Shown here piece after piece: positions 45,450 through 53,506 of a stretch of DNA of 64,000 nucleotides (its first letter is position 1; the number at the start of each line of letters is the position of its first letter). The notes below the pieces were generated by a model. It saw only the letters and a program-made list of their open reading frames with translations. It did no database searches and was not told where the DNA came from. The position numbers were made by a program, and so were the translations under genes. The DNA comes from Sulfurimonas sp. (GTDB lineage Bacteria > Campylobacterota > Campylobacteria > Campylobacterales > Sulfurimonadaceae): positions 133,380-197,379 of the forward strand of contig JBAZIE010000001.1 of the NCBI GenBank assembly GCA_041652055.1, in the 5' to 3' direction.

Positions 45450-47264
45450 TCAACTTTTTAATTTTATAACTCTGTCTCTAAGCTCATCTGCTCTAATTTC
45501 TTCTGAAATAGGCTCTCCAAAGGTAAGCGTTATCTCCCTCTTTTTTAAAAAACATCTTTTTGCATCGCCTTTGTGCCTTGCAAAAAGGCTTCCAAAAACG
45601 CCCTCTATATGAAACGGCACAATGGCCGCATCGCCTCTATCTATAAACTCATAGCCTCTGTAAAATTTTGCGATGTCAGAATTTCTAGAAATTTCACCCT
45701 CTGGAAATATGGCGACTATTTTACCATCTTTTAATTTCATTGAGGTTTCAAAAAAGGAATCTTTTGAGGCTTTTTTTGATACCGGAATCAACTCAGCCAA
45801 CTTAAAAACTCTGTTTACAAACTTCCAGTTGTATATATCCTTCTCTATCATAAAACTTATCCGCCTCTCAATGGGCAATTGAAGGATAAACCAATCAATC
45901 CAGCTTACATGGTTTCCCATAAGCATTACTGCGCCATTTTGCGGTATATTCTCCAACCCTGTGTAGTTAAATCTGTATCTTATCTTAAATAAAAACTCCA
46001 AAAATGTCCAGCATGTCATTACAAAATATCTTTTAAATAGTATCACGGCAAGACAAACTCCAACAAAACTCATCAGATAAAAAAGGATTTGTGCATCTGC
46101 TCCAAAATATGCGAAGAGTGTTGTCAGCATTAAAAAAGAGAACATAAAAAGCGTTTGAACAAAGTTATTTCCGGCCAAAATAGTTCCTAAATGTACATTT
46201 GGAGAGAGATATTGTATCTTTGCATTTAGCGGTACTATCAACAAACCGGAGAAGAGACCAAAAAACATAAACTCTATTGCCAAAAACAGTATAGAAGTCG
46301 TGGCTGGAATACAAAGCAGAATAACGATGATACAAAAAGCGCTAATAGCAGACAAACCTGTATTTATATAATATTTTGAGAAGTTTGCCGCCATAATTGA
46401 GCCGAGCACTATGCCTAAAACCGCAAGCGCCATAACTCCCTGAACAAGAGATGCACTTGTAATTCCCAGCTCACTCTTTGCATATTCGCCAAAAATAGCC
46501 AGAACCACCTGAGATATTGACCAAAAAAGACTAAGCGCTATTATTGCGTCAAATATCTCTTTTTTTCGCATAATCATAATCATGTTTTTTCTAAGATACG
46601 CACCGCTAAAATATCTCTTAAATCTAAACTTCCGCTCGCTTGCTTCTGTCATCATGTTTGGCAGTTTTGATGCCAAAAAATACTCTATAACCGAACCCAA
46701 AACCAGAAGCCATCCGAGCGGTGCCACAATCTTTAAAATATCCTCTTTGGTGTTAAGGTTATCTCCAAGCAGAGCTTCAAATAGCACCGTGTAAAAAATA
46801 ATCCCTAAAAGTATCGCGGCTGTTGTAGTTGCCTGAACCGCTCCGTTTCCGGCAGTTATAAACTTTATGCCTACAAGTTCTTTTATATATCCGTATTTTG
46901 CAGGTCCATAAATGGCACTTTGAAGTGCGAGCAAAAAAGTCATGGCAAATGCGGCAAAAAACCAGCCTTGATAGTAGAAATATGTAATTATAAGCGTAAT
47001 AGCTACTGCAAGAAGTGACGAGTATTTCATAATAATGTTTTTTGCAAATCTGTCTGCTAAAAAACCCGCAGGAGAGAATGCCAAAATAAATGGCAAAAGT
47101 ATAAGCGCATTTACAACTGCACTAAGTATTATTTGAGTTGTCCCGTCATACACTTTAAAAACAGTGTTTTGTATGATTATCTTATGCCCTAAATCTGTAA
47201 AAGCATTTAAAAAAGCAACAACTAAATAGTTTACAACTCCGACAATAGCAAACATACTCTTCAT
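45450..47264 (-). CDS. MFS (LplT-like) transporter fused to a PlsC acyltransferase domain (Aas-like, no AMP-binding domain)
   Basis: 12-TM MFS with GFLADRF and QSAIYGPAKYG; NHVSWID and IFPEGEIS; ends after the PlsC domain. Confidence 0.88.
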   Translation of the reverse strand: MKSMFAIVGVVNYLVVAFLNAFTDLGHKIIIQNTVFKVYDGTTQIILSAVVNALILLPFILAFSPAGFLADRFAKNIIMKYSSLLAVAITLIITYFYYQGWFFAAFAMTFLLALQSAIYGPAKYGYIKELVGIKFITAGNGAVQATTTAAILLGIIFYTVLFEALLGDNLNTKEDILKIVAPLGWLLVLGSVIEYFLASKLPNMMTEASERKFRFKRYFSGAYLRKNMIMIMRKKEIFDAIIALSLFWSISQVVLAIFGEYAKSELGITSASLVQGVMALAVLGIVLGSIMAANFSKYYINTGLSAISAFCIIVILLCIPATTSILFLAIEFMFFGLFSGLLIVPLNAKIQYLSPNVHLGTILAGNNFVQTLFMFSFLMLTTLFAYFGADAQILFYLMSFVGVCLAVILFKRYFVMTCWTFLEFLFKIRYRFNYTGLENIPQNGAVMLMGNHVSWIDWFILQLPIERRISFMIEKDIYNWKFVNRVFKLAELIPVSKKASKDSFFETSMKLKDGKIVAIFPEGEISRNSDIAKFYRGYEFIDRGDAAIVPFHIEGVFGSLFARHKGDAKRCFLKKREITLTFGEPISEEIRADELRDRVIKLKS

Positions 47265-47269
47265 AACTG

Positions 47270-47989
47270 CTAACCTTGATTATCTACTAAAACGGTGCTC
47301 CAGCCCTCATAATATCCATGCTCTTTTTTAATAAGAGCGTAAAGCTCCTCTACAATTGCCCTGACCTCTTCATTTTTCACATTGTGCTTCTTCACCAAAG
47401 CCACGCCGTGCTCAAACTCTTCGCTGCTGATATCGTCTTTAAATTCAAATCCGCATGACAAAACACTCTGCACAAATCTCTCTTTTTGAGTAGCAGTCTC
47501 AAACGAGACGTAATGCTCAACGTCTCTAGGAGTTTCAAGCACATCGCCCTCTTCTTCTAGCAGAAATATTATCTTGTCACTCTCAATATTGTAAAGCTCC
47601 AGCTCTGTAGGATATATATATTTATGGTAAAAATCCCACTTTGCGTCTTTTACAACGCTGCTCTCATACTTGTAGCCGCTATCACGAAGCATCTTCGTAA
47701 CAATAACTTCGAGATTTTTAGCGCTTCTTGCATAGAAGTAGAACTCATTCCACTCATCTTTGAGTCTTGAGCCGATATATTTCGCAATGTTATCGTATTC
47801 TAATGCAATGATTAGAGACTCTTTTGTTTCTAAAAAGTTTTCAAAGTTCTCGCTCTCTTCATCAAGATTGCCAAACTTTACAAAAACGCTAAAAAGCCAC
47901 GGATAGAGCTCTTTTTCGTCCTCTAAATCAACCTCTGCCTCAATATTTACAACTTCGCCATCTTCAATTCTGCTAAATAATTCTCTCAT
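47270..47989 (-). CDS. DUF695 / RraB-like domain protein
   Basis: EFYFY, D.KWDFY..Y.YP, GD.LETPR.VEH, G.YEGW; acidic. Confidence 0.75.
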   Translation of the reverse strand: MRELFSRIEDGEVVNIEAEVDLEDEKELYPWLFSVFVKFGNLDEESENFENFLETKESLIIALEYDNIAKYIGSRLKDEWNEFYFYARSAKNLEVIVTKMLRDSGYKYESSVVKDAKWDFYHKYIYPTELELYNIESDKIIFLLEEEGDVLETPRDVEHYVSFETATQKERFVQSVLSCGFEFKDDISSEEFEHGVALVKKHNVKNEEVRAIVEELYALIKKEHGYYEGWSTVLVDNQG

Positions 47990-48058: not shown

Positions 48059-48073
48059 TGATAATAATTATCA
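48059..48073. promoter_or_regulatory. Fur box (perfect 7-1-7)
   Basis: TGATAAT-A-ATTATCA, a perfect inverted repeat about 90 bp upstream of the porin gene. Confidence 0.8.
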
Positions 48074-48124
48074 TTTTAATATTAATTTAAGAAAAATGAA
48101 ACTACAATTCTGCATATTGATAAA

Positions 48125-48140
48125 CGATAATGCTTATCAT
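48125..48140. promoter_or_regulatory. Second Fur-like box
   Basis: CGATAATGCTTATCAT, about 20 bp upstream of the porin start. Confidence 0.65.
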
Positions 48141-48159
48141 ATTCAAATAAAGAAAAAAA

Positions 48160-49395
48160 ATGAAATTTTTCAATAACAAATTAGGTTTTAGCATAGTTGC
48201 TGCAATTATGCTCGCAGGAGGCTTACAAGCGGATACTGCTTCGGATATAGCGGAGCTTAAAAAAGAGATAGCAGAGCTTAAAGAGCAGACCAAAACCTTA
48301 ACGGATGAGACAAGCAACCTTCAGATGGGTTTTGGCTACACAACTGTTGACAACGAAGCTTCTCACAGCGGTCTTGGTGCTGCTGCATCAAAAGTGTACT
48401 ACTCAAAATCACCTTTGAGCATCGGCGGTTACGGTGAGATGTACTACTCACACACAAACAAAGAGAGCGGTTCAAACAGCTCTAAAGTTGATGTATATAG
48501 ATTTGTTCCATACATCGGTTATAAATTTAGTGACAATATTCTTTTAAATGTTGAACTTGAATTTGAACACGGCGGAGTGGCAAATGACGGAGGAGACGCA
48601 GAGGGCGGAGAGGTTATAGTTGAGTTTATATATCTTGACTTTCTTATAAACGAATGGGCGAATATCAGAGTCGGTAACATGTTAATGCCGATGGGGCTTA
48701 TAAATGAAAGACACGAACCGACACTTTTTACGACTGTTCAAAGACCAAACACCGCAAAGCAGATAATTCCGACAACTTGGCATGAGAGCGGCGTAATGGT
48801 TTACGGAGATGTTTTTGAAGGATTGGAGTATAAATTTGCAGGAGTTACCGCACTAAATCCGACAATAGACAGCGATACAAGCTGGCTAAGAAGTGCGCGC
48901 GGCGGCTCATTTACAAACAATGACCCAAAACTCGGTTTTGTTGCAAGGCTAGACTATACGGACATTAACGGTCTTTTGGCAGGTGCTTCGGCTTATATGG
49001 ACTCAAATATAAATATGTTCGATATTCATGCAGATTACAAGATAAAAGGATTTAGAGCGTATGGAACATATGCAGAGGCAAAGCGCTCAGACGCATTTGA
49101 GTTGGCGGGTGCACTCTCTCAGGTAAAAGCAAAAGGCGGCTACTTAAACCTTAGTTATGATCTCTTAACGTTAAGTTCATCAAGCGACAAATTGCCATTG
49201 TTTGTTCAATTTGAGAGCGTCAACAGTGCCGATAAAAAAACAGACGGAAGTTCGCTTGATTCTATCGACACAACGACATTTGGCATAAACTACTTTCCGC
49301 ATGATCAGGTTGTACTAAAAGCCGACTATGCGATGCAGAGCCAAGGTGGAGTTGACTCTGACACATTCAGCCTCTCTATGGGATTTATTTTTTAA
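48160..49395 (+). CDS. Outer-membrane porin with N-terminal coiled coil
   Basis: Signal peptide, DIAELKKEIAELKEQ coil, IGGYGEMYY, ELEFEHGG, alternating beta strands, terminal GFIF. Confidence 0.85.
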   Translation: MKFFNNKLGFSIVAAIMLAGGLQADTASDIAELKKEIAELKEQTKTLTDETSNLQMGFGYTTVDNEASHSGLGAAASKVYYSKSPLSIGGYGEMYYSHTNKESGSNSSKVDVYRFVPYIGYKFSDNILLNVELEFEHGGVANDGGDAEGGEVIVEFIYLDFLINEWANIRVGNMLMPMGLINERHEPTLFTTVQRPNTAKQIIPTTWHESGVMVYGDVFEGLEYKFAGVTALNPTIDSDTSWLRSARGGSFTNNDPKLGFVARLDYTDINGLLAGASAYMDSNINMFDIHADYKIKGFRAYGTYAEAKRSDAFELAGALSQVKAKGGYLNLSYDLLTLSSSSDKLPLFVQFESVNSADKKTDGSSLDSIDTTTFGINYFPHDQVVLKADYAMQSQGGVDSDTFSLSMGFIF

Positions 49396-49406
49396 CTGAT
49401 GTTACG

Positions 49407-49520
49407 CACTGAAACGAACTCGTCCGTTTCAGTGGCAGCTGCTTATGTCCCTACAACCCCCTTAGCATGGAGTATGCCATTGGTTAGCATACCTAAAAGC
49501 TACGAAAAACTTGTTTTTCG
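49407..49520. other. Structured intergenic segment with three hairpins
   Basis: CACTGAAACG/CGTTTCAGTG (49407-49434), GTATGC/GCATAC (49472-49492), CGAAAAAC/GTTTTTCG (49503-49520). Confidence 0.6.
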
Positions 49521-49560
49521 AGAATTTCAAGATGCTTGGCGTTCTTATTGACAAAGTTCA

Positions 49561-49589
49561 TTGACAAAAAAAAATTTATTTTATACAAT
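49561..49589 (+). promoter_or_regulatory. Sigma-70-type promoter
   Basis: TTGACA-17 nt-TACAAT upstream of the FMN-binding gene; an A9 run begins in the -35 box and extends into the spacer. Confidence 0.65.
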
Positions 49590-49616
49590 CTGCAAAACTT
49601 AGGAGCACTTCTTATT

Positions 49617-50144
49617 ATGAAACAACTTTTACTATATCTTCTTATTTTTTTGGCACTTCCCCTGAGCGCCAAAATGCTTATCTCTCCAATTAATGCTATG
49701 AATCAAAGCTATGGAGCAAAGAGCAAAATTAGCGAAGAGAATATTTTATTGACAAATATTCAGGCAAAAAAAATTCAAGAAGAGTCGAATGTAAAACTTG
49801 ATAGTAATATTTTTAAAGTGTTCAAAGCCCAACTGAGCGGCAAAACAGTGGGTTACGGTGTTTTAATCAACAGAAAAATACGCTCAAAAAATGGTGTTGT
49901 TCTCTACTTAATCTCATCAGACTCTGTTTTAAAAAGCATAGAGGTTATAGCTTTTAATGAACCAATGGAGTATGTGCCTTCAAAAAAGTGGATGTCGCAA
50001 TTTGAGAACGTAAACAGCAATACGCCGCTAAATCTCTCTAAAGATATCCCGACCATAACCGGTGCAACGCTGAGTGCTAAAAGTTTTGTCGACGGCTCAA
50101 AAATAGCTTTTGCTCTTTACAATGAAGTTTTAAAAGGCAAATAG
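49617..50144 (+). CDS. Exported FMN-binding (flavinylation target) protein
   Basis: Signal peptide MKQLLLYLLIFLALPLSA; F.EP.EY; W..QF; flavinylation motif TITGATLS. Confidence 0.85.
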   Translation: MKQLLLYLLIFLALPLSAKMLISPINAMNQSYGAKSKISEENILLTNIQAKKIQEESNVKLDSNIFKVFKAQLSGKTVGYGVLINRKIRSKNGVVLYLISSDSVLKSIEVIAFNEPMEYVPSKKWMSQFENVNSNTPLNLSKDIPTITGATLSAKSFVDGSKIAFALYNEVLKGK

Positions 50145-50617
50145 TGAAATTTACCGTCATAAAAAATCTTCAAAAAGACAGCGCTATGAGCCTTATTTTA
50201 AAAGGCTTTCTTTTTTTTATACTCCTCTACATCGTATCAGATATTTTTGTTATGAAAGAGAGTTTCGGAATATCTGCAGAGGCTCTGCACTCAACGCTTT
50301 TTGGGAATGAAGAGGCTTACATAGACCCGATAAACGAAGCATCTTTTTTGGAGTTTTGGCACACGCAGATTTTCTTTATCATGATGATTCTGCTCACACT
50401 CAGCGCAGTTTTTATAAGGGTTGCAAAAAGAAGCAGAAATATCCTTACAAATATTCTTATGATTAGCGCCATAGCGTCACTTGTCTCGCTTCCTTTGGCA
50501 TATTACACCTCAAAATTTTTTATAAATATCTATGTGATAAGCTATTTTCTCTGGCATCTTGTCGCAATTTATATGATTTTCTACTCTTTTTGGAAGCTAA
50601 ATGCAAGAAGCGTATAA
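50144..50617 (+). CDS. 4-TM membrane protein, paralog A
   Basis: GTG start overlaps the upstream stop (TAGTG); FGNEEAYI loop; His in FWHTQ and LWHLV. Confidence 0.8.
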   Translation: MKFTVIKNLQKDSAMSLILKGFLFFILLYIVSDIFVMKESFGISAEALHSTLFGNEEAYIDPINEASFLEFWHTQIFFIMMILLTLSAVFIRVAKRSRNILTNILMISAIASLVSLPLAYYTSKFFINIYVISYFLWHLVAIYMIFYSFWKLNARSV

Positions 50618-51047
50618 ACTCTCCATCCTCTACTATCTAGCTTTTTCGCTGCTTTTGATTGTAAGTGCGATTATGCTCTTTGAGCACAAAATAGGCTTTA
50701 GCTTTAGCAGTGTTTTGGAGTATTACACTGGCAATGAAGAGAAATTTATTCCTGCTCAGAGTGCAGGCGGGATTTTAAAGATAGTATTGCCTCATATTTT
50801 TGTATTTGGGCTTTTTGCGATGGTGCTTTTGCACTTTTTGGTCTTTGCCGATTTGAGATACAAAGAAAACATAACTCTTTTGATTTATGCCGCTTTTGGC
50901 GTCGCACTGCTTGAAATTTTCACGCCGTTTATGATTATCGGCGGATTTGAGTTCTTTGCATACGTAAAACTCTTCTCATTTTTTGCCTTTTTATCTCTAC
51001 TGCTCTATATCTCTTGGCTGCTTTTTCAAAGTATCGCCAAAGAGTAG
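50601..51047 (+). CDS. 4-TM membrane protein, paralog B
   Basis: Overlaps paralog A; TGNEEKFI loop; His in LPHIF and LLHF. Confidence 0.8.
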   Translation: MQEAYKLSILYYLAFSLLLIVSAIMLFEHKIGFSFSSVLEYYTGNEEKFIPAQSAGGILKIVLPHIFVFGLFAMVLLHFLVFADLRYKENITLLIYAAFGVALLEIFTPFMIIGGFEFFAYVKLFSFFAFLSLLLYISWLLFQSIAKE

Positions 51048-51965
51048 ATTTTTTGCATATTTAGTTATATTTTTACTTATAACAATCTCTTCATCACTCT
51101 GCATAATGATATAACCTACTCCAAGAACGTCTAAAAACTCATAAGCAGTCTTTATCGGCATAACACTCGCAGCAGTGGCATAAGCGTCCAAATCGCTGTT
51201 TGAGAGCTCTCCGATAAGCGTAATAGAGATAAAACATGTTTGCGGTTTTTTGGCTTTAGGGTCTATAAGATGGTTGTTCTTGGTTGATAAAACATATCTG
51301 TTGTAGTTTCCGCTTGTTGAGATGCCTAGATCGCTCTTAGTGCTCTCAAACGACAGCATCTTCTCATCTTCTAAAAAAGGATTTTGAATATCTATCTTAC
51401 ATGTAGAGAGGCAGCGTATGTCTCCGCTTAGAGAAATCACCGCCTCTATAGTGTCTTTGCTTCTAAAATACTCAGCCACTTTATCAACTGCAAAACCCTT
51501 TCCCATTCCGCCCAAATCAACCTTTATGCCATCGTCTATAAAAGCCTCTTTTTCATTAAACCGCAAAGCATTGAAAGCGACTTTTGCATCCTGAAGTTCA
51601 AGTGACGTCGGCACTCTCTGGCTCTCTCCAAATCGGTACAAATCTTTTGTTATGGAGCCGACCGTAATGTCAAAATATCCGTCAGTTGCCGCGTAGTACT
51701 TTTTGCATAAACTGAGCGCTTCAAAAAAATAGCCGTCATTTTCTACATGTAGATTTTTATTTAGCAGATATGCACGTGCATTTTTGTTGTATGAGGAGAG
51801 AGACATCTCGATATCTTTCATAATATCAAAGCCGTTATTTACGAGATTTGAGCTCTTTTCATCAACCGAGATAGTTGCAAATGTTGCCATGATTATTTGT
51901 GTGCGAGAGGCAATTTTGGCCTCTAGGAGCCAAAAGATGGATAAAAAGAGAAGCAGGAATTTCAA
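50997..51965 (-). CDS. apbE: FAD:protein FMN transferase
   Basis: Signal peptide; GYFDITVG, DLGGMGKGFAVD, SGDIR, STSGNYNR, HLIDP, DAYATA. Confidence 0.93.
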   Translation of the reverse strand: MKFLLLFLSIFWLLEAKIASRTQIIMATFATISVDEKSSNLVNNGFDIMKDIEMSLSSYNKNARAYLLNKNLHVENDGYFFEALSLCKKYYAATDGYFDITVGSITKDLYRFGESQRVPTSLELQDAKVAFNALRFNEKEAFIDDGIKVDLGGMGKGFAVDKVAEYFRSKDTIEAVISLSGDIRCLSTCKIDIQNPFLEDEKMLSFESTKSDLGISTSGNYNRYVLSTKNNHLIDPKAKKPQTCFISITLIGELSNSDLDAYATAASVMPIKTAYEFLDVLGVGYIIMQSDEEIVISKNITKYAKNLLFGDTLKKQPRDIEQ

Positions 51966-51968
51966 AAT

Positions 51969-52997
51969 TTAGATAGTAATCATTTCGTTGATTTCAAGCC
52001 CGAAACCGCTAAGACCTACAAACTCAGTATGGCTGAGCGAAGAGATAAGGTTCATTTTTGAAACACCGAAAGATTTTAGTATCTGCGCGCCGATTCCAAA
52101 CTCTTTAATCGCCGCATTGTCATTGTGTGTCGGCTTATTTATAAAGATAAGAACACCGCTGTTTTGTTTTAAATACTCTATCGAAGAGACAAGATTGTTA
52201 TACTTTTTTTGGTTTAGCAGAAGTTCGATGTCGGGAATTATATTGTGCACTCTCACATTGGCAACAGAAGTTACTTTATGAAACACAATGGCCGTATGTT
52301 CAATGGCGTCATGATCTCTAAATATATGTTTTTTAACTTTTGTACCAAAAAACTCTATCTCCTCTACTTCTACCTCACTCACCAGCCTCTCGTTTGCAAG
52401 GCGATACTCAACGATATCTGAGATAAATACTGTTTTTAGAGCGTGTTTTTCTCCAAAAATATCCAAGTCGTCACGTCTAGCCATTGTGCCGTCTTCTTTG
52501 ATGATTTCACAGATAACCGATGATTCGCTAAGTCCAGCCAAGCGACACAAATCTACCGAGCCCTCAGTATGTCCGGTTCTAACTAGAGTTCCACCCTCTT
52601 TTGCGATAAGGGGAAATATATGCCCAGGTTTTACAAGCTCGTCTGCATGGCTTATAGGATTTGCCAAAATCTTGATAGTATCATCTCTCTCGCCTGCCGA
52701 GATACCCGTAAGTGCATTTTTTGCATCAACCGAGACAGTAAATGCCGTCTCATACGAAGATGTATTTGAGCTTACCATTGGATTTAGCTCTAGTCTTGTT
52801 GCGATATTTCTGCTGATTGCAACACAGATAAGACCTCTTGCGTGAGTAGCCATAAAGTTGACATGTGCAGGAGTTGAAAAAGCAGCGGCATAAACCAAAT
52901 CGCCCTCATTTTCTCTATCCTCGTCATCAATCATGATGACCATGCGCCCTCTTTTAATCTCCTCAATAGCTTCTAATACTCTTTGTGTAGGTGTCAT
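51969..52997 (-). CDS. ribB: DHBP synthase with a degenerate GTP cyclohydrolase II domain (RibBX)
   Basis: DDEDRENEGD, GLICV, FTVSVDA, PGHIFPL, RTGHTE; the C-terminal domain lacks the Zn-binding cysteines. Confidence 0.92.
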   Translation of the reverse strand: MTPTQRVLEAIEEIKRGRMVIMIDDEDRENEGDLVYAAAFSTPAHVNFMATHARGLICVAISRNIATRLELNPMVSSNTSSYETAFTVSVDAKNALTGISAGERDDTIKILANPISHADELVKPGHIFPLIAKEGGTLVRTGHTEGSVDLCRLAGLSESSVICEIIKEDGTMARRDDLDIFGEKHALKTVFISDIVEYRLANERLVSEVEVEEIEFFGTKVKKHIFRDHDAIEHTAIVFHKVTSVANVRVHNIIPDIELLLNQKKYNNLVSSIEYLKQNSGVLIFINKPTHNDNAAIKEFGIGAQILKSFGVSKMNLISSLSHTEFVGLSGFGLEINEMITI

Positions 52998-53153: not shown

Positions 53154-53230
<77 letters not shown>

Positions 53231-53250
53231 ATTCTTTCACTTTTCATTGT

Positions 53251-53325
53251 TGGGGTATAGCCAAGCGGTAAGGCAACTGGTTTTGGTCCAGTCATTCAGG
53301 GGTTCGAATCCCTTTACCCCATCCA
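53251..53325 (+). tRNA. tRNA-Gln (TTG)
   Basis: TGGGGTATAGCCAAGCGGTAAGGC..., anticodon arm ACTGG-TTTTGGT-CCAGT, GTTCGAATC, CCA. Confidence 0.96.
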
Positions 53326-53429
53326 CTTTCAATAATCTCATTATTGATTTTTGTTTAATCGAGGCAAAATTGAGCGAAGCATACTGTAGTATGTGAGTGA
53401 AATTTTAACGAAGAGTAAACTAAAAAGAC

Positions 53430-53506
<77 letters not shown>

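Follow-up and report, generated by a model that had tools for sequence, protein, structure and literature searches.

We describe a conserved gene module that we read, with slightly better than even confidence, as a Fur-repressed periplasmic ferric reductase for assimilatory iron reduction. It lies at positions 48059–52997 of a 64,000-nucleotide (nt) stretch of DNA from Sulfurimonas sp. (GenBank assembly GCA_041652055.1, contig JBAZIE010000001.1, positions 133,380 to 197,379; hereafter, 'the window' denotes this whole stretch). The source genome is a 2.3 Mb metagenome-assembled genome (MAG), 89% complete with a reported contamination of 3.9%. Two Fur-type boxes precede genes for a porin, a flavin mononucleotide (FMN)-binding protein (FMNb) and two small paralogous proteins with four transmembrane (TM) helices, MemA and MemB. 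The flavin transferase gene apbE and the flavin-biosynthesis gene ribBX converge on these four genes from the opposite strand. This organization is conserved well beyond the source genome, as are the boxes, and the membrane pair belongs to a family, Aq_1264_TM, that is distinct from the membrane proteins described so far in flavinylated systems.

A conserved gene module

The porin gene (48160–49395, + strand; ATG at 48160) encodes an exported protein of 411 amino acids (aa) and is followed, after a 221-nt gap, by the gene for FMNb (49617–50144, + strand; 175 aa), which has an AGGAG ribosome-binding site and carries the motif TITGATLS. MemA (50144–50617, + strand; 157 aa) begins at a GTG start that shares 1 nt with the FMNb stop, and MemB (50601–51047, + strand; 148 aa) overlaps memA by 17 nt. 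On the − strand, apbE (50997–51965), encoding a flavin adenine dinucleotide (FAD):protein FMN transferase, runs convergently with memB. Only 3 bp separate it from ribBX (51969–52997, − strand), a ribBA-type gene that combines a 3,4-dihydroxy-2-butanone 4-phosphate (DHBP) synthase with a degenerate GTP-cyclohydrolase II (GCHII) domain. The features listed in an initial annotation made from the DNA letters were all confirmed here, as was the absence of any Rnf, Nqr, Nos or TonB-receptor gene from the locus.

The gene order is shared across the Campylobacterales. In a sample of 301 genomes from the phylum, MemA was found in 20, from four families of one order; one of these hits, in genome G121 (E 4.5e-4), contains five stops and was regarded as spurious or as a remnant. 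All 17 loci that were extracted, representing four Campylobacterales families, show porin–FMNb–MemA–MemB with a nearby ApbE at 25–70% identity, counting three in which the MemB paralogue was not detected with the query used and one whose contig stops short of the porin. Most of these loci have a convergent ApbE; one Sulfuricurvum-type arrangement has it divergent, upstream of the porin. A second set comprised 80 species-level genomes (Sulfurimonas, Sulfuricurvum, Hydrogenimonas, an Arcobacter MAG and other Campylobacterales). Where enough flanking DNA was available, MemA follows FMNb in 67 of 68 loci, MemB is present in all 68 and a convergent ApbE in 59 of 68. A gap criterion had flagged 13 of 63 loci as lacking the porin, which proved to be an artefact of that criterion; the porin is present in all seven exception loci that were re-inspected (five of them among the 13 flagged), either abutting FMNb or split off from it by an inserted gene.

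The arrangement also extends to distant metagenomic contigs, in which FMNb is followed by Aq_1264_TM, as one gene, two genes or a fusion, and then by a convergent ApbE. A homologous coiled-coil porin often stands upstream, and start/stop overlaps between FMNb and MemA recur in these distant loci. The co-occurrence of porin, FMNb, membrane pair and apbE across taxa, on which the initial annotation had staked its proposal, is borne out. ApbE was found in 24 of the 301 phylum genomes, 19 of which carry the module, each having its only ApbE next to it. Neither ApbE nor MemA was found in the two largest families of this sample (f2, 0 of 90 genomes; f3, 0 of 124). Within the genus the module has a patchy distribution, with 7 of 13 genomes carrying it. 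Candidatus Sulfurimonas marisnigri and baltica have it, as do the cultured Sulfurimonas indica NW8N, Sulfurimonas sp. CS5 and S. crateris.

Fur-type boxes and the link to iron

The porin ATG is preceded at a distance of about 100 nt by box 1 (48059–48073; TGATAATAATTATCA, a perfect 7-1-7 palindrome) and at about 35 nt by box 2 (48125–48139; CGATAATGCTTATCA, a 12/14 match), 66 bp from box 1. Both fit the 7-1-7 consensus TGATAATNATTATCA, and they are the sole matches with at most two mismatches in the window. From Bacillus consensus sequences, we take the motif to be the Fur 7-1-7 consensus and not the PerR or Zur variants. Across the genome there are two perfect boxes and three at 13/14; two of these three precede feoB, followed by a ferritin-like gene. 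An equivalent of box 1 stands at about −100 in all 17 orthologous loci of the four families, and an equivalent of box 2 at about −35 in nearly all of them, against a background rate of 0.07–0.41 comparable matches per kb. Among 49 further loci, 48 contain one or more boxes matching at 12/14 or higher, and 38 contain two or more. In distant versions, the module adjoins fur (L030), divergent feoAB (L033) or a FeoB-associated gene. The initial reading of the boxes as marks of iron regulation is therefore strengthened by their phylogenetic conservation and by their place in front of feoB in the source genome, and we predict that porin–FMNb–memA–memB is under Fur control.

The 221-nt gap between porin and FMNb contains two further elements. 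An 8-bp inverted repeat (CTGAAACG...CGTTTCAG, 49409–49432) directly follows the porin stop and has no T-run, and a promoter-like element (TTGACA-17-TACAAT, 11/12; 49561–49589, + strand), which may be an internal promoter, is a consensus match only, promoter-like matches in the region being no more frequent than in shuffled sequence. The repeat and the promoter-like site could together set the ratio of porin to downstream products. In many orthologous loci the porin–FMNb gap is far shorter.

Elsewhere in the source genome, the other perfect box (contig C4:49032) heads an operon (L034) that may specify another iron-regulated uptake system; it encodes a Phenol_MetA_deg-type outer-membrane channel and an NMT1-like binding protein together with an ABC permease and its ATPase. 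Near-collinear copies of an OprD-like porin gene, a Fur box, feoB, the ferritin-like gene and a response-regulator gene occur at C2:123664–131664 and C24:10038–18038; these feoB copies may reflect strain heterogeneity, MAG contamination or a true duplication.

FMNb and ApbE, a predicted dedicated pair

Our profile comparisons place FMNb in a family of flavoproteins that ApbE modifies. As a single sequence it scores 18.8 bits against FMN_bind (PF04205), below the cut-off of 22; all 16 of its orthologues match PF04205 (best E 1.3e-7), and the FMNb profile finds the solved RnfG chains 9eri_G (E 5e-10) and 7zc6_G with the flavinylated threonine aligned. The motif TITGATLS aligns with ITGSTITS of RnfG, and G149 and T151 are invariant in 16 sequences of 27–67% identity, which points to T151 as the probable FMN acceptor. 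ApbE matches PF02424 at E 7.8e-48. Judged by eye, both proteins have signal-peptide-like N-termini (FMNb, MKQLLLYLLIFLALPLSA-K; ApbE, MKFLLLFLSIFWLLEA-K).

The source genome encodes a single ApbE and a single FMN_bind-like open reading frame (ORF), both at this locus, and a search for DUF2271 gave no match in this genome. With one enzyme and one FMN_bind target that adjoin each other, enzyme and substrate appear to be dedicated to one another; FMNb, which had been proposed as the ApbE target from its motif, is the only recognizable target in the genome. FMNb has in common with RnfG and NqrC the FMN_bind fold, the aligned threonine in [S/T]GA[S/T] that is flavinylated in those proteins, and a predicted dependence on ApbE. 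It differs from them as a free-standing exported protein paired with Aq_1264_TM proteins, and no NqrB/RnfD-type subunit (PF03116) was found in the locus or elsewhere in the 89%-complete genome.

A membrane pair of the Aq_1264_TM family

MemA and MemB are paralogues (BLASTP E 4e-4; hhalign 99.7%) of the family PF27139 (Aq_1264_TM), which is the precomputed annotation of the window protein and of all 120 relatives listed. The Atlas clusters nearest to MemB are 90–100% PF27139. An exhaustive HMMER search of 1.84 billion representatives returned only 85 clusters at E ≤0.001. Neither protein matched our local Pfam-A library, which does not include PF27139, at E ≤0.1, and profile searches against PDB sequences gave rows at chance level only.

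Charge counts indicate a four-helix topology with N and C termini inside and a long acidic periplasmic loop (mean of 5.0 Asp + Glu) that carries the invariant Gly of a 'GNEE' motif. Three histidines are conserved without exception: MemA H73 in all 70 clusters, and MemB H65 and H78, separated by 13 residues on TM2, in all 22. A fourth, MemA H138, occurs in 49 of 70 clusters. A conserved Lys is also found in the helices. In the paralogue alignment MemA H73 and MemB H65 are two positions apart, and by the positive-inside rule both are near the periplasmic face. A spacing of 13 residues between His on one helix is typical of di-haem membrane cytochromes.

Several lines of evidence suggest that MemA and MemB work together. 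Natural MemA–MemB fusions exist, in that order, P0182 being one example. Complex prediction for the pair gives weak support, with an ipSAE of 0.51 against 0.00 for the best of three controls; this mark is reached by 58 of 80 solved complexes and by 2 of 110 mismatched pairs, with only 7 of those 80 solved complexes, and both mismatches, at 0.60 or lower. At least 87% of contacts are shared between the prediction runs, and the predicted local distance difference test (pLDDT) score of the partner is at least 83. In the model of a fused member (pLDDT 77), each half folds as a four-helix bundle, and polar residues within the membrane are few.

Some relatives consist of a single Aq_1264_TM gene (P0187, P0189, P0192, P0195, P0202; L116:1360–1866) that carries HxH and a distal His in one chain and follows an FMNb-like gene, with no second paralogue. 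These are probably homodimeric, ancestral-type versions. The His pattern of MemA and MemB looks as if the heterodimer had split the ligand set of an ancestral homodimer between its two chains.

This kind of pair can be compared with the SdhC/SdhD-type haem-b anchors, which are small paralogous membrane subunits that ligate haem between them. Like SdhC and SdhD, MemA and MemB are two small, paralogous helical proteins, each of which would contribute one His to a putative interfacial haem close to one face of the membrane, with a presumed link to quinone. They differ in having no sequence or detectable fold relationship to SdhC/SdhD and in their partner, a periplasmic flavoprotein in place of a cytoplasmic dehydrogenase; the haem of MemA and MemB is putative.

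An OprP-like porin

The porin has a signal peptide followed by a periplasmic coiled coil at residues ~26–55. An AlphaFold2 model built from a 15-sequence alignment (pLDDT 73) shows a 16-strand barrel with in-folded loops. With this model, Foldseek retrieves OmpU (E 1e-14), OprP (2o4v; E 1e-12, query TM-score 0.60) and OprO (4rjw; query TM-score 0.60), OprP and OprO having the highest query TM-scores. Sequence comparisons point in the same direction: the window porin itself has no match to Porin_O_P (PF07396), 8 of 15 orthologues do (best E 4.8e-7), the porin profile reaches OprP among PDB sequences at E 0.038, and the language-model neighbours of the porin are Porin_O_P clusters.

Because the 16-strand model matches trimeric porins, the protein is best modelled as an ordinary diffusion pore of the OprP/OprO/OmpU type, possibly anion-selective, and not as a barrel of the porin–cytochrome type or an electron conduit. 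In MtrAB/Pcc-type porin–cytochrome conduits a large barrel of ~20–26 strands sheaths a redox protein, unlike the 16-strand window porin. The initial description of the locus as a 'trans-envelope' system was not upheld in the sense of an electron conduit across the outer membrane.

ribBX and flavin supply

RibBX has a full-length DHBP synthase domain (E 4.4e-79) and a GCHII domain that is matched only in pieces (E 2e-15); its best NCBIfam match is PRK09314, a 339-aa 'bifunctional' type. It is the sole DHBP synthase in the genome, so ribBX is a housekeeping gene, and a separate full RibA is encoded on contig C23. Adjacency of ribBX and apbE is seen only in the genus Sulfurimonas (5 of 17 loci in the phylum sample, 35 of 68 in the second set), and no Fur box precedes ribBX in its own upstream region. 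The claim that RibBX supplies cofactor locally, which rests on gene order, is weakened by these observations; local supply would be at most a convenience at the level of the genus. A riboswitch-coupled form of local flavin supply was dropped, as an Rfam scan upstream of ribBX found no FMN riboswitch, only three transfer RNA (tRNA) genes and one sub-threshold small RNA row.

Upstream of ribBX, 680 bp free of ORFs hold the three tRNA genes (+ strand, 53154–53503), of which the first and third are near-identical in sequence. At the other end of the locus, upstream of the porin and divergent, are a DUF695/RraB-domain gene and a gene for a 604-aa membrane acyltransferase-like protein (45450–47989); both hold the same position in several Sulfurimonas and related genomes (L014, L055, L099, L102). 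memB and apbE converge with overlapping 3′ ends, by 51 nt in the window and by 32–118 nt in distant loci (L013, L031, L033, L117), a conserved layout that could reflect antisense interference or a coupling of apbE to the Fur-controlled operon.

Lineage-specific insertions

Additional redox genes are found in or beside the module in some lineages. A 367-aa cytochrome c with five CxxCH motifs is inserted between memB and apbE in four Sulfurimonas loci (L014:5443–6546, L015:7923–9023, L028:2434–3537 and L029:7925–9028), and the source genome has a 53%-identical five-CxxCH cytochrome elsewhere (C4:22364–23473). CCP_MauG di-haem peroxidase genes occur in two unrelated lineages, inserted in one (L099:4814–5941) and adjacent in the other (L031:3948–5141), and a PccH-like cytochrome adjoins the fused-form version. 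A Tll0287-PAS-GGDEF sensor lies between porin and FMNb in one Sulfurimonas (L055:4188–5870). A periplasmic redox role for the module fits the presence of the c-type cytochromes (five-haem, CCP_MauG and PccH).

Proposed mechanism

Taken as a ferric reductase, the module would operate as follows. When iron is scarce, Fur would leave the two operators and porin–FMNb–memA–memB would be transcribed. The OprP-like porin would admit either a soluble flavin shuttle or a small chelate of Fe(III), probably an anion, and ApbE, from the convergent ribBX–apbE operon, would attach FMN covalently to Thr151 of FMNb. A MemA–MemB heterodimer in the inner membrane would hold MemA H73 and MemB H65 at equal depth near the periplasmic face, above a deeper pair formed by MemB H78 and, in most members, MemA H138. 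Where the subunits meet, the invariant His probably serve as ligands of one or two b-type haems, through which electrons from the quinol pool, or from a donor in the cytoplasm, could reach the flavin of FMNb. This flavin would reduce Fe(III), and the resulting Fe(II) would be taken up by FeoB. The data would agree equally well with two haems or with just one, placed at the interface close to the periplasm and supplied by quinol.

The central step, electron transfer from MemA–MemB to FMNb, probably via haem b, is inferred from the near-universal translational coupling of FMNb and MemA, from the invariant His at matching depth near the periplasmic face and from the 13-residue spacing of the two MemB His, known from di-haem helices in general. 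Analogy with the PepSY-like, MsrQ-like and DUF4405 cytochromes also points to this step (PMC8238504; PMC11334425). In the initial annotation, porin, membrane pair and flavoprotein were already combined into an Fe(III)-reducing system; the genes do form a conserved module with a link to iron, and electron transfer by the pair and Fe(III) as the substrate keep the standing of proposals.

Several observations weigh against this mechanism. No electron donor is encoded in the locus. The histidines do not establish a classic four-His di-haem site: only three are universal, MemA H138 is absent from 30% of clusters and, by our estimate, H138 lies mid-membrane and is not level with MemB H78. When the fused-form model was compared with the PDB, Foldseek returned nothing at E <1e-3 and VIA-align only generic four-helix bundles, the top rows (haem A synthase, cytochrome b) being far too weak to count; this lack of a match is no evidence for a new fold either. 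The recurring CCP_MauG neighbours could indicate peroxide rather than iron chemistry, and the promoter-like site between porin and FMNb might, in this strain, release the genes behind it from Fur control.

Alternative explanations

MemA–MemB could instead be a transporter, moving Fe(II) or another metal inward along a His/carboxylate path or exporting FAD to the periplasm for ApbE, with FMNb receiving its electrons from elsewhere. The strongly acidic periplasmic loop, the conserved His and Lys within the helices and the three universal His, which suit a metal relay as well as haem ligation, would all accommodate such a role, and neither Foldseek nor VIA-align gave a structural match to any membrane cytochrome. 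Some versions have no neighbouring iron importer, so that the module could be the importer itself. However, other versions adjoin feoAB and the source genome has a Fur-boxed feoB, which would make a second ferrous permease unneeded. Transport would also leave FMNb without a module-encoded electron source despite its translational coupling to MemA almost everywhere, each half of the fused model is a simple four-helix bundle poor in polar intramembrane residues, and the spacing of the two invariant His of MemB is that of di-haem cytochrome ligands. We consider a transporter unlikely.

The module could also be redox-active in a role other than iron assimilation, either passing electrons to periplasmic cytochromes or peroxidases as a defence against peroxide under iron scarcity or taking part in dissimilatory reduction of extracellular Fe or Mn oxides via flavin shuttles. 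The CCP_MauG genes inside or beside the module in two unrelated lineages (L099 and L031), the five-haem cytochrome inserted in several Sulfurimonas and the PccH-like cytochrome beside the fused version agree with this, as do the adjacency of ribBX and apbE in the genus and the presence of the module in Candidatus Sulfurimonas marisnigri and baltica, which are manganese-oxide reducers. Against it, the operator fits the Fur and not the PerR consensus, the same box stands before feoB in the source genome, and the fur, feoAB and FeoB-associated neighbours indicate iron supply. The cytochrome additions are specific to particular lineages and the window locus has none, and the patchy distribution in the genus is one that accessory uptake systems often show. 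We hold such a role to be quite unlikely. A true trans-envelope conduit, with the flavoprotein inside the outer-membrane barrel and electrons delivered to the cell surface, seems very improbable. No partner accompanies the flavoprotein more constantly than the porin, always encoded directly upstream where present, and the N-terminal periplasmic coiled coil of this porin is unusual; but a 16-strand OmpU/OprP/OmpF-class barrel with in-folded loops is too narrow for a 17-kDa protein, known outer-membrane electron conduits use barrels of ~26 strands, and some distant versions have no porin beside FMNb (L033).

Relation to known systems

A role as assimilatory iron reductases has been proposed for flavinylated systems that include membrane cytochromes (PMC8238504, PMC11334425), and the membrane classes linked to flavinylation and iron reduction are PepSY-like/FoxB, MsrQ-like, DUF4405 and FezC (Meheust et al. 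2021, PMC8238504; Huang et al. 2024, PMC11334425). The PepSY-like, MsrQ-like, DUF4405 and FezC systems resemble the module in encoding together an extracytosolic ApbE substrate, a dedicated ApbE and a small His-bearing membrane protein, in their links to iron (Fur, iron transporters) and in a logic that would run from membrane cytochrome through covalent flavin to Fe(III). Whereas those systems use the classes named above, the membrane part of the module is a PF27139 4-TM heterodimer or fusion. MemA and MemB have no Pfam match to the PepSY-like, MsrQ-like or DUF4405 proteins (PF03929/PF16357, PF01794 and DUF4405) and no fold match, and, in contrast to flavinylation-linked cytochromes, their His pattern is split over MemA (H) and MemB (H...13...H). 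The membrane pair thus falls in none of the TM classes given for flavinylated systems (PMC8238504, PMC11334425), as the initial annotation had supposed. The module is also headed by a dedicated OprP-like porin, which those studies do not describe; the word 'porin' has 0 occurrences in PMC8238504. We therefore propose that the module works like the flavinylation-linked iron reductases of Meheust et al. and Huang et al., with a different membrane family and a dedicated porin.

Within the same phylum, riboflavin-linked ferric reduction has been reported in Helicobacter pylori and Campylobacter jejuni (PMC6041382), and ribBA is iron-regulated in H. pylori (PMC8238504; PMC6041382). The module resembles P19-FTR1/FeoAB-linked uptake (PMC8238504) and riboflavin-linked ferric reduction (PMC6041382) as a predicted iron-repressed envelope system with flavins implicated in supplying Fe(II) to importers. 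Unlike the P19-FTR1 systems, the window locus has neither P19 nor FTR1. The two largest families of the phylum sample yielded no copy of the module; if those are the families of Campylobacter and Helicobacter, it cannot explain the phenotype of these organisms.

The module is apparently undescribed. We found no paper on it or on the Aq_1264 family, and nothing for Sulfurimonas together with ApbE or with FMN-binding and porin, in literature that omits most subscription journals, so that a description elsewhere is possible; Sulfurimonas is not mentioned in the part of the PMC8238504 supplements that we examined.

Implications

Extracytosolic ApbE occurs in about half of bacteria, and in the 2021 survey 2,595 of 6,230 genomes without a characterized system had no assigned membrane partner (PMC8238504). 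The module offers a candidate membrane partner family in Aq_1264_TM, for which we found no published function and which is tied to iron control through conserved operators. We raise the possibility, at somewhat less than even confidence, that Aq_1264_TM is a further, unrecognized class of flavinylation-linked TM electron carriers. It would act as a homodimer (HxH...H), heterodimer or fusion with an interfacial haem b, wired to an RnfG-like flavoprotein and a Fur-controlled OprP-like porin in a self-contained ferric-reductase module found across many phyla. Among the Campylobacterota genomes searched, the module is the main context of ApbE, accounting for 19 of the 24 that bear it. It could explain how sulfur-oxidizing Sulfurimonas and Sulfuricurvum acquire iron at redox interfaces without siderophore receptors.

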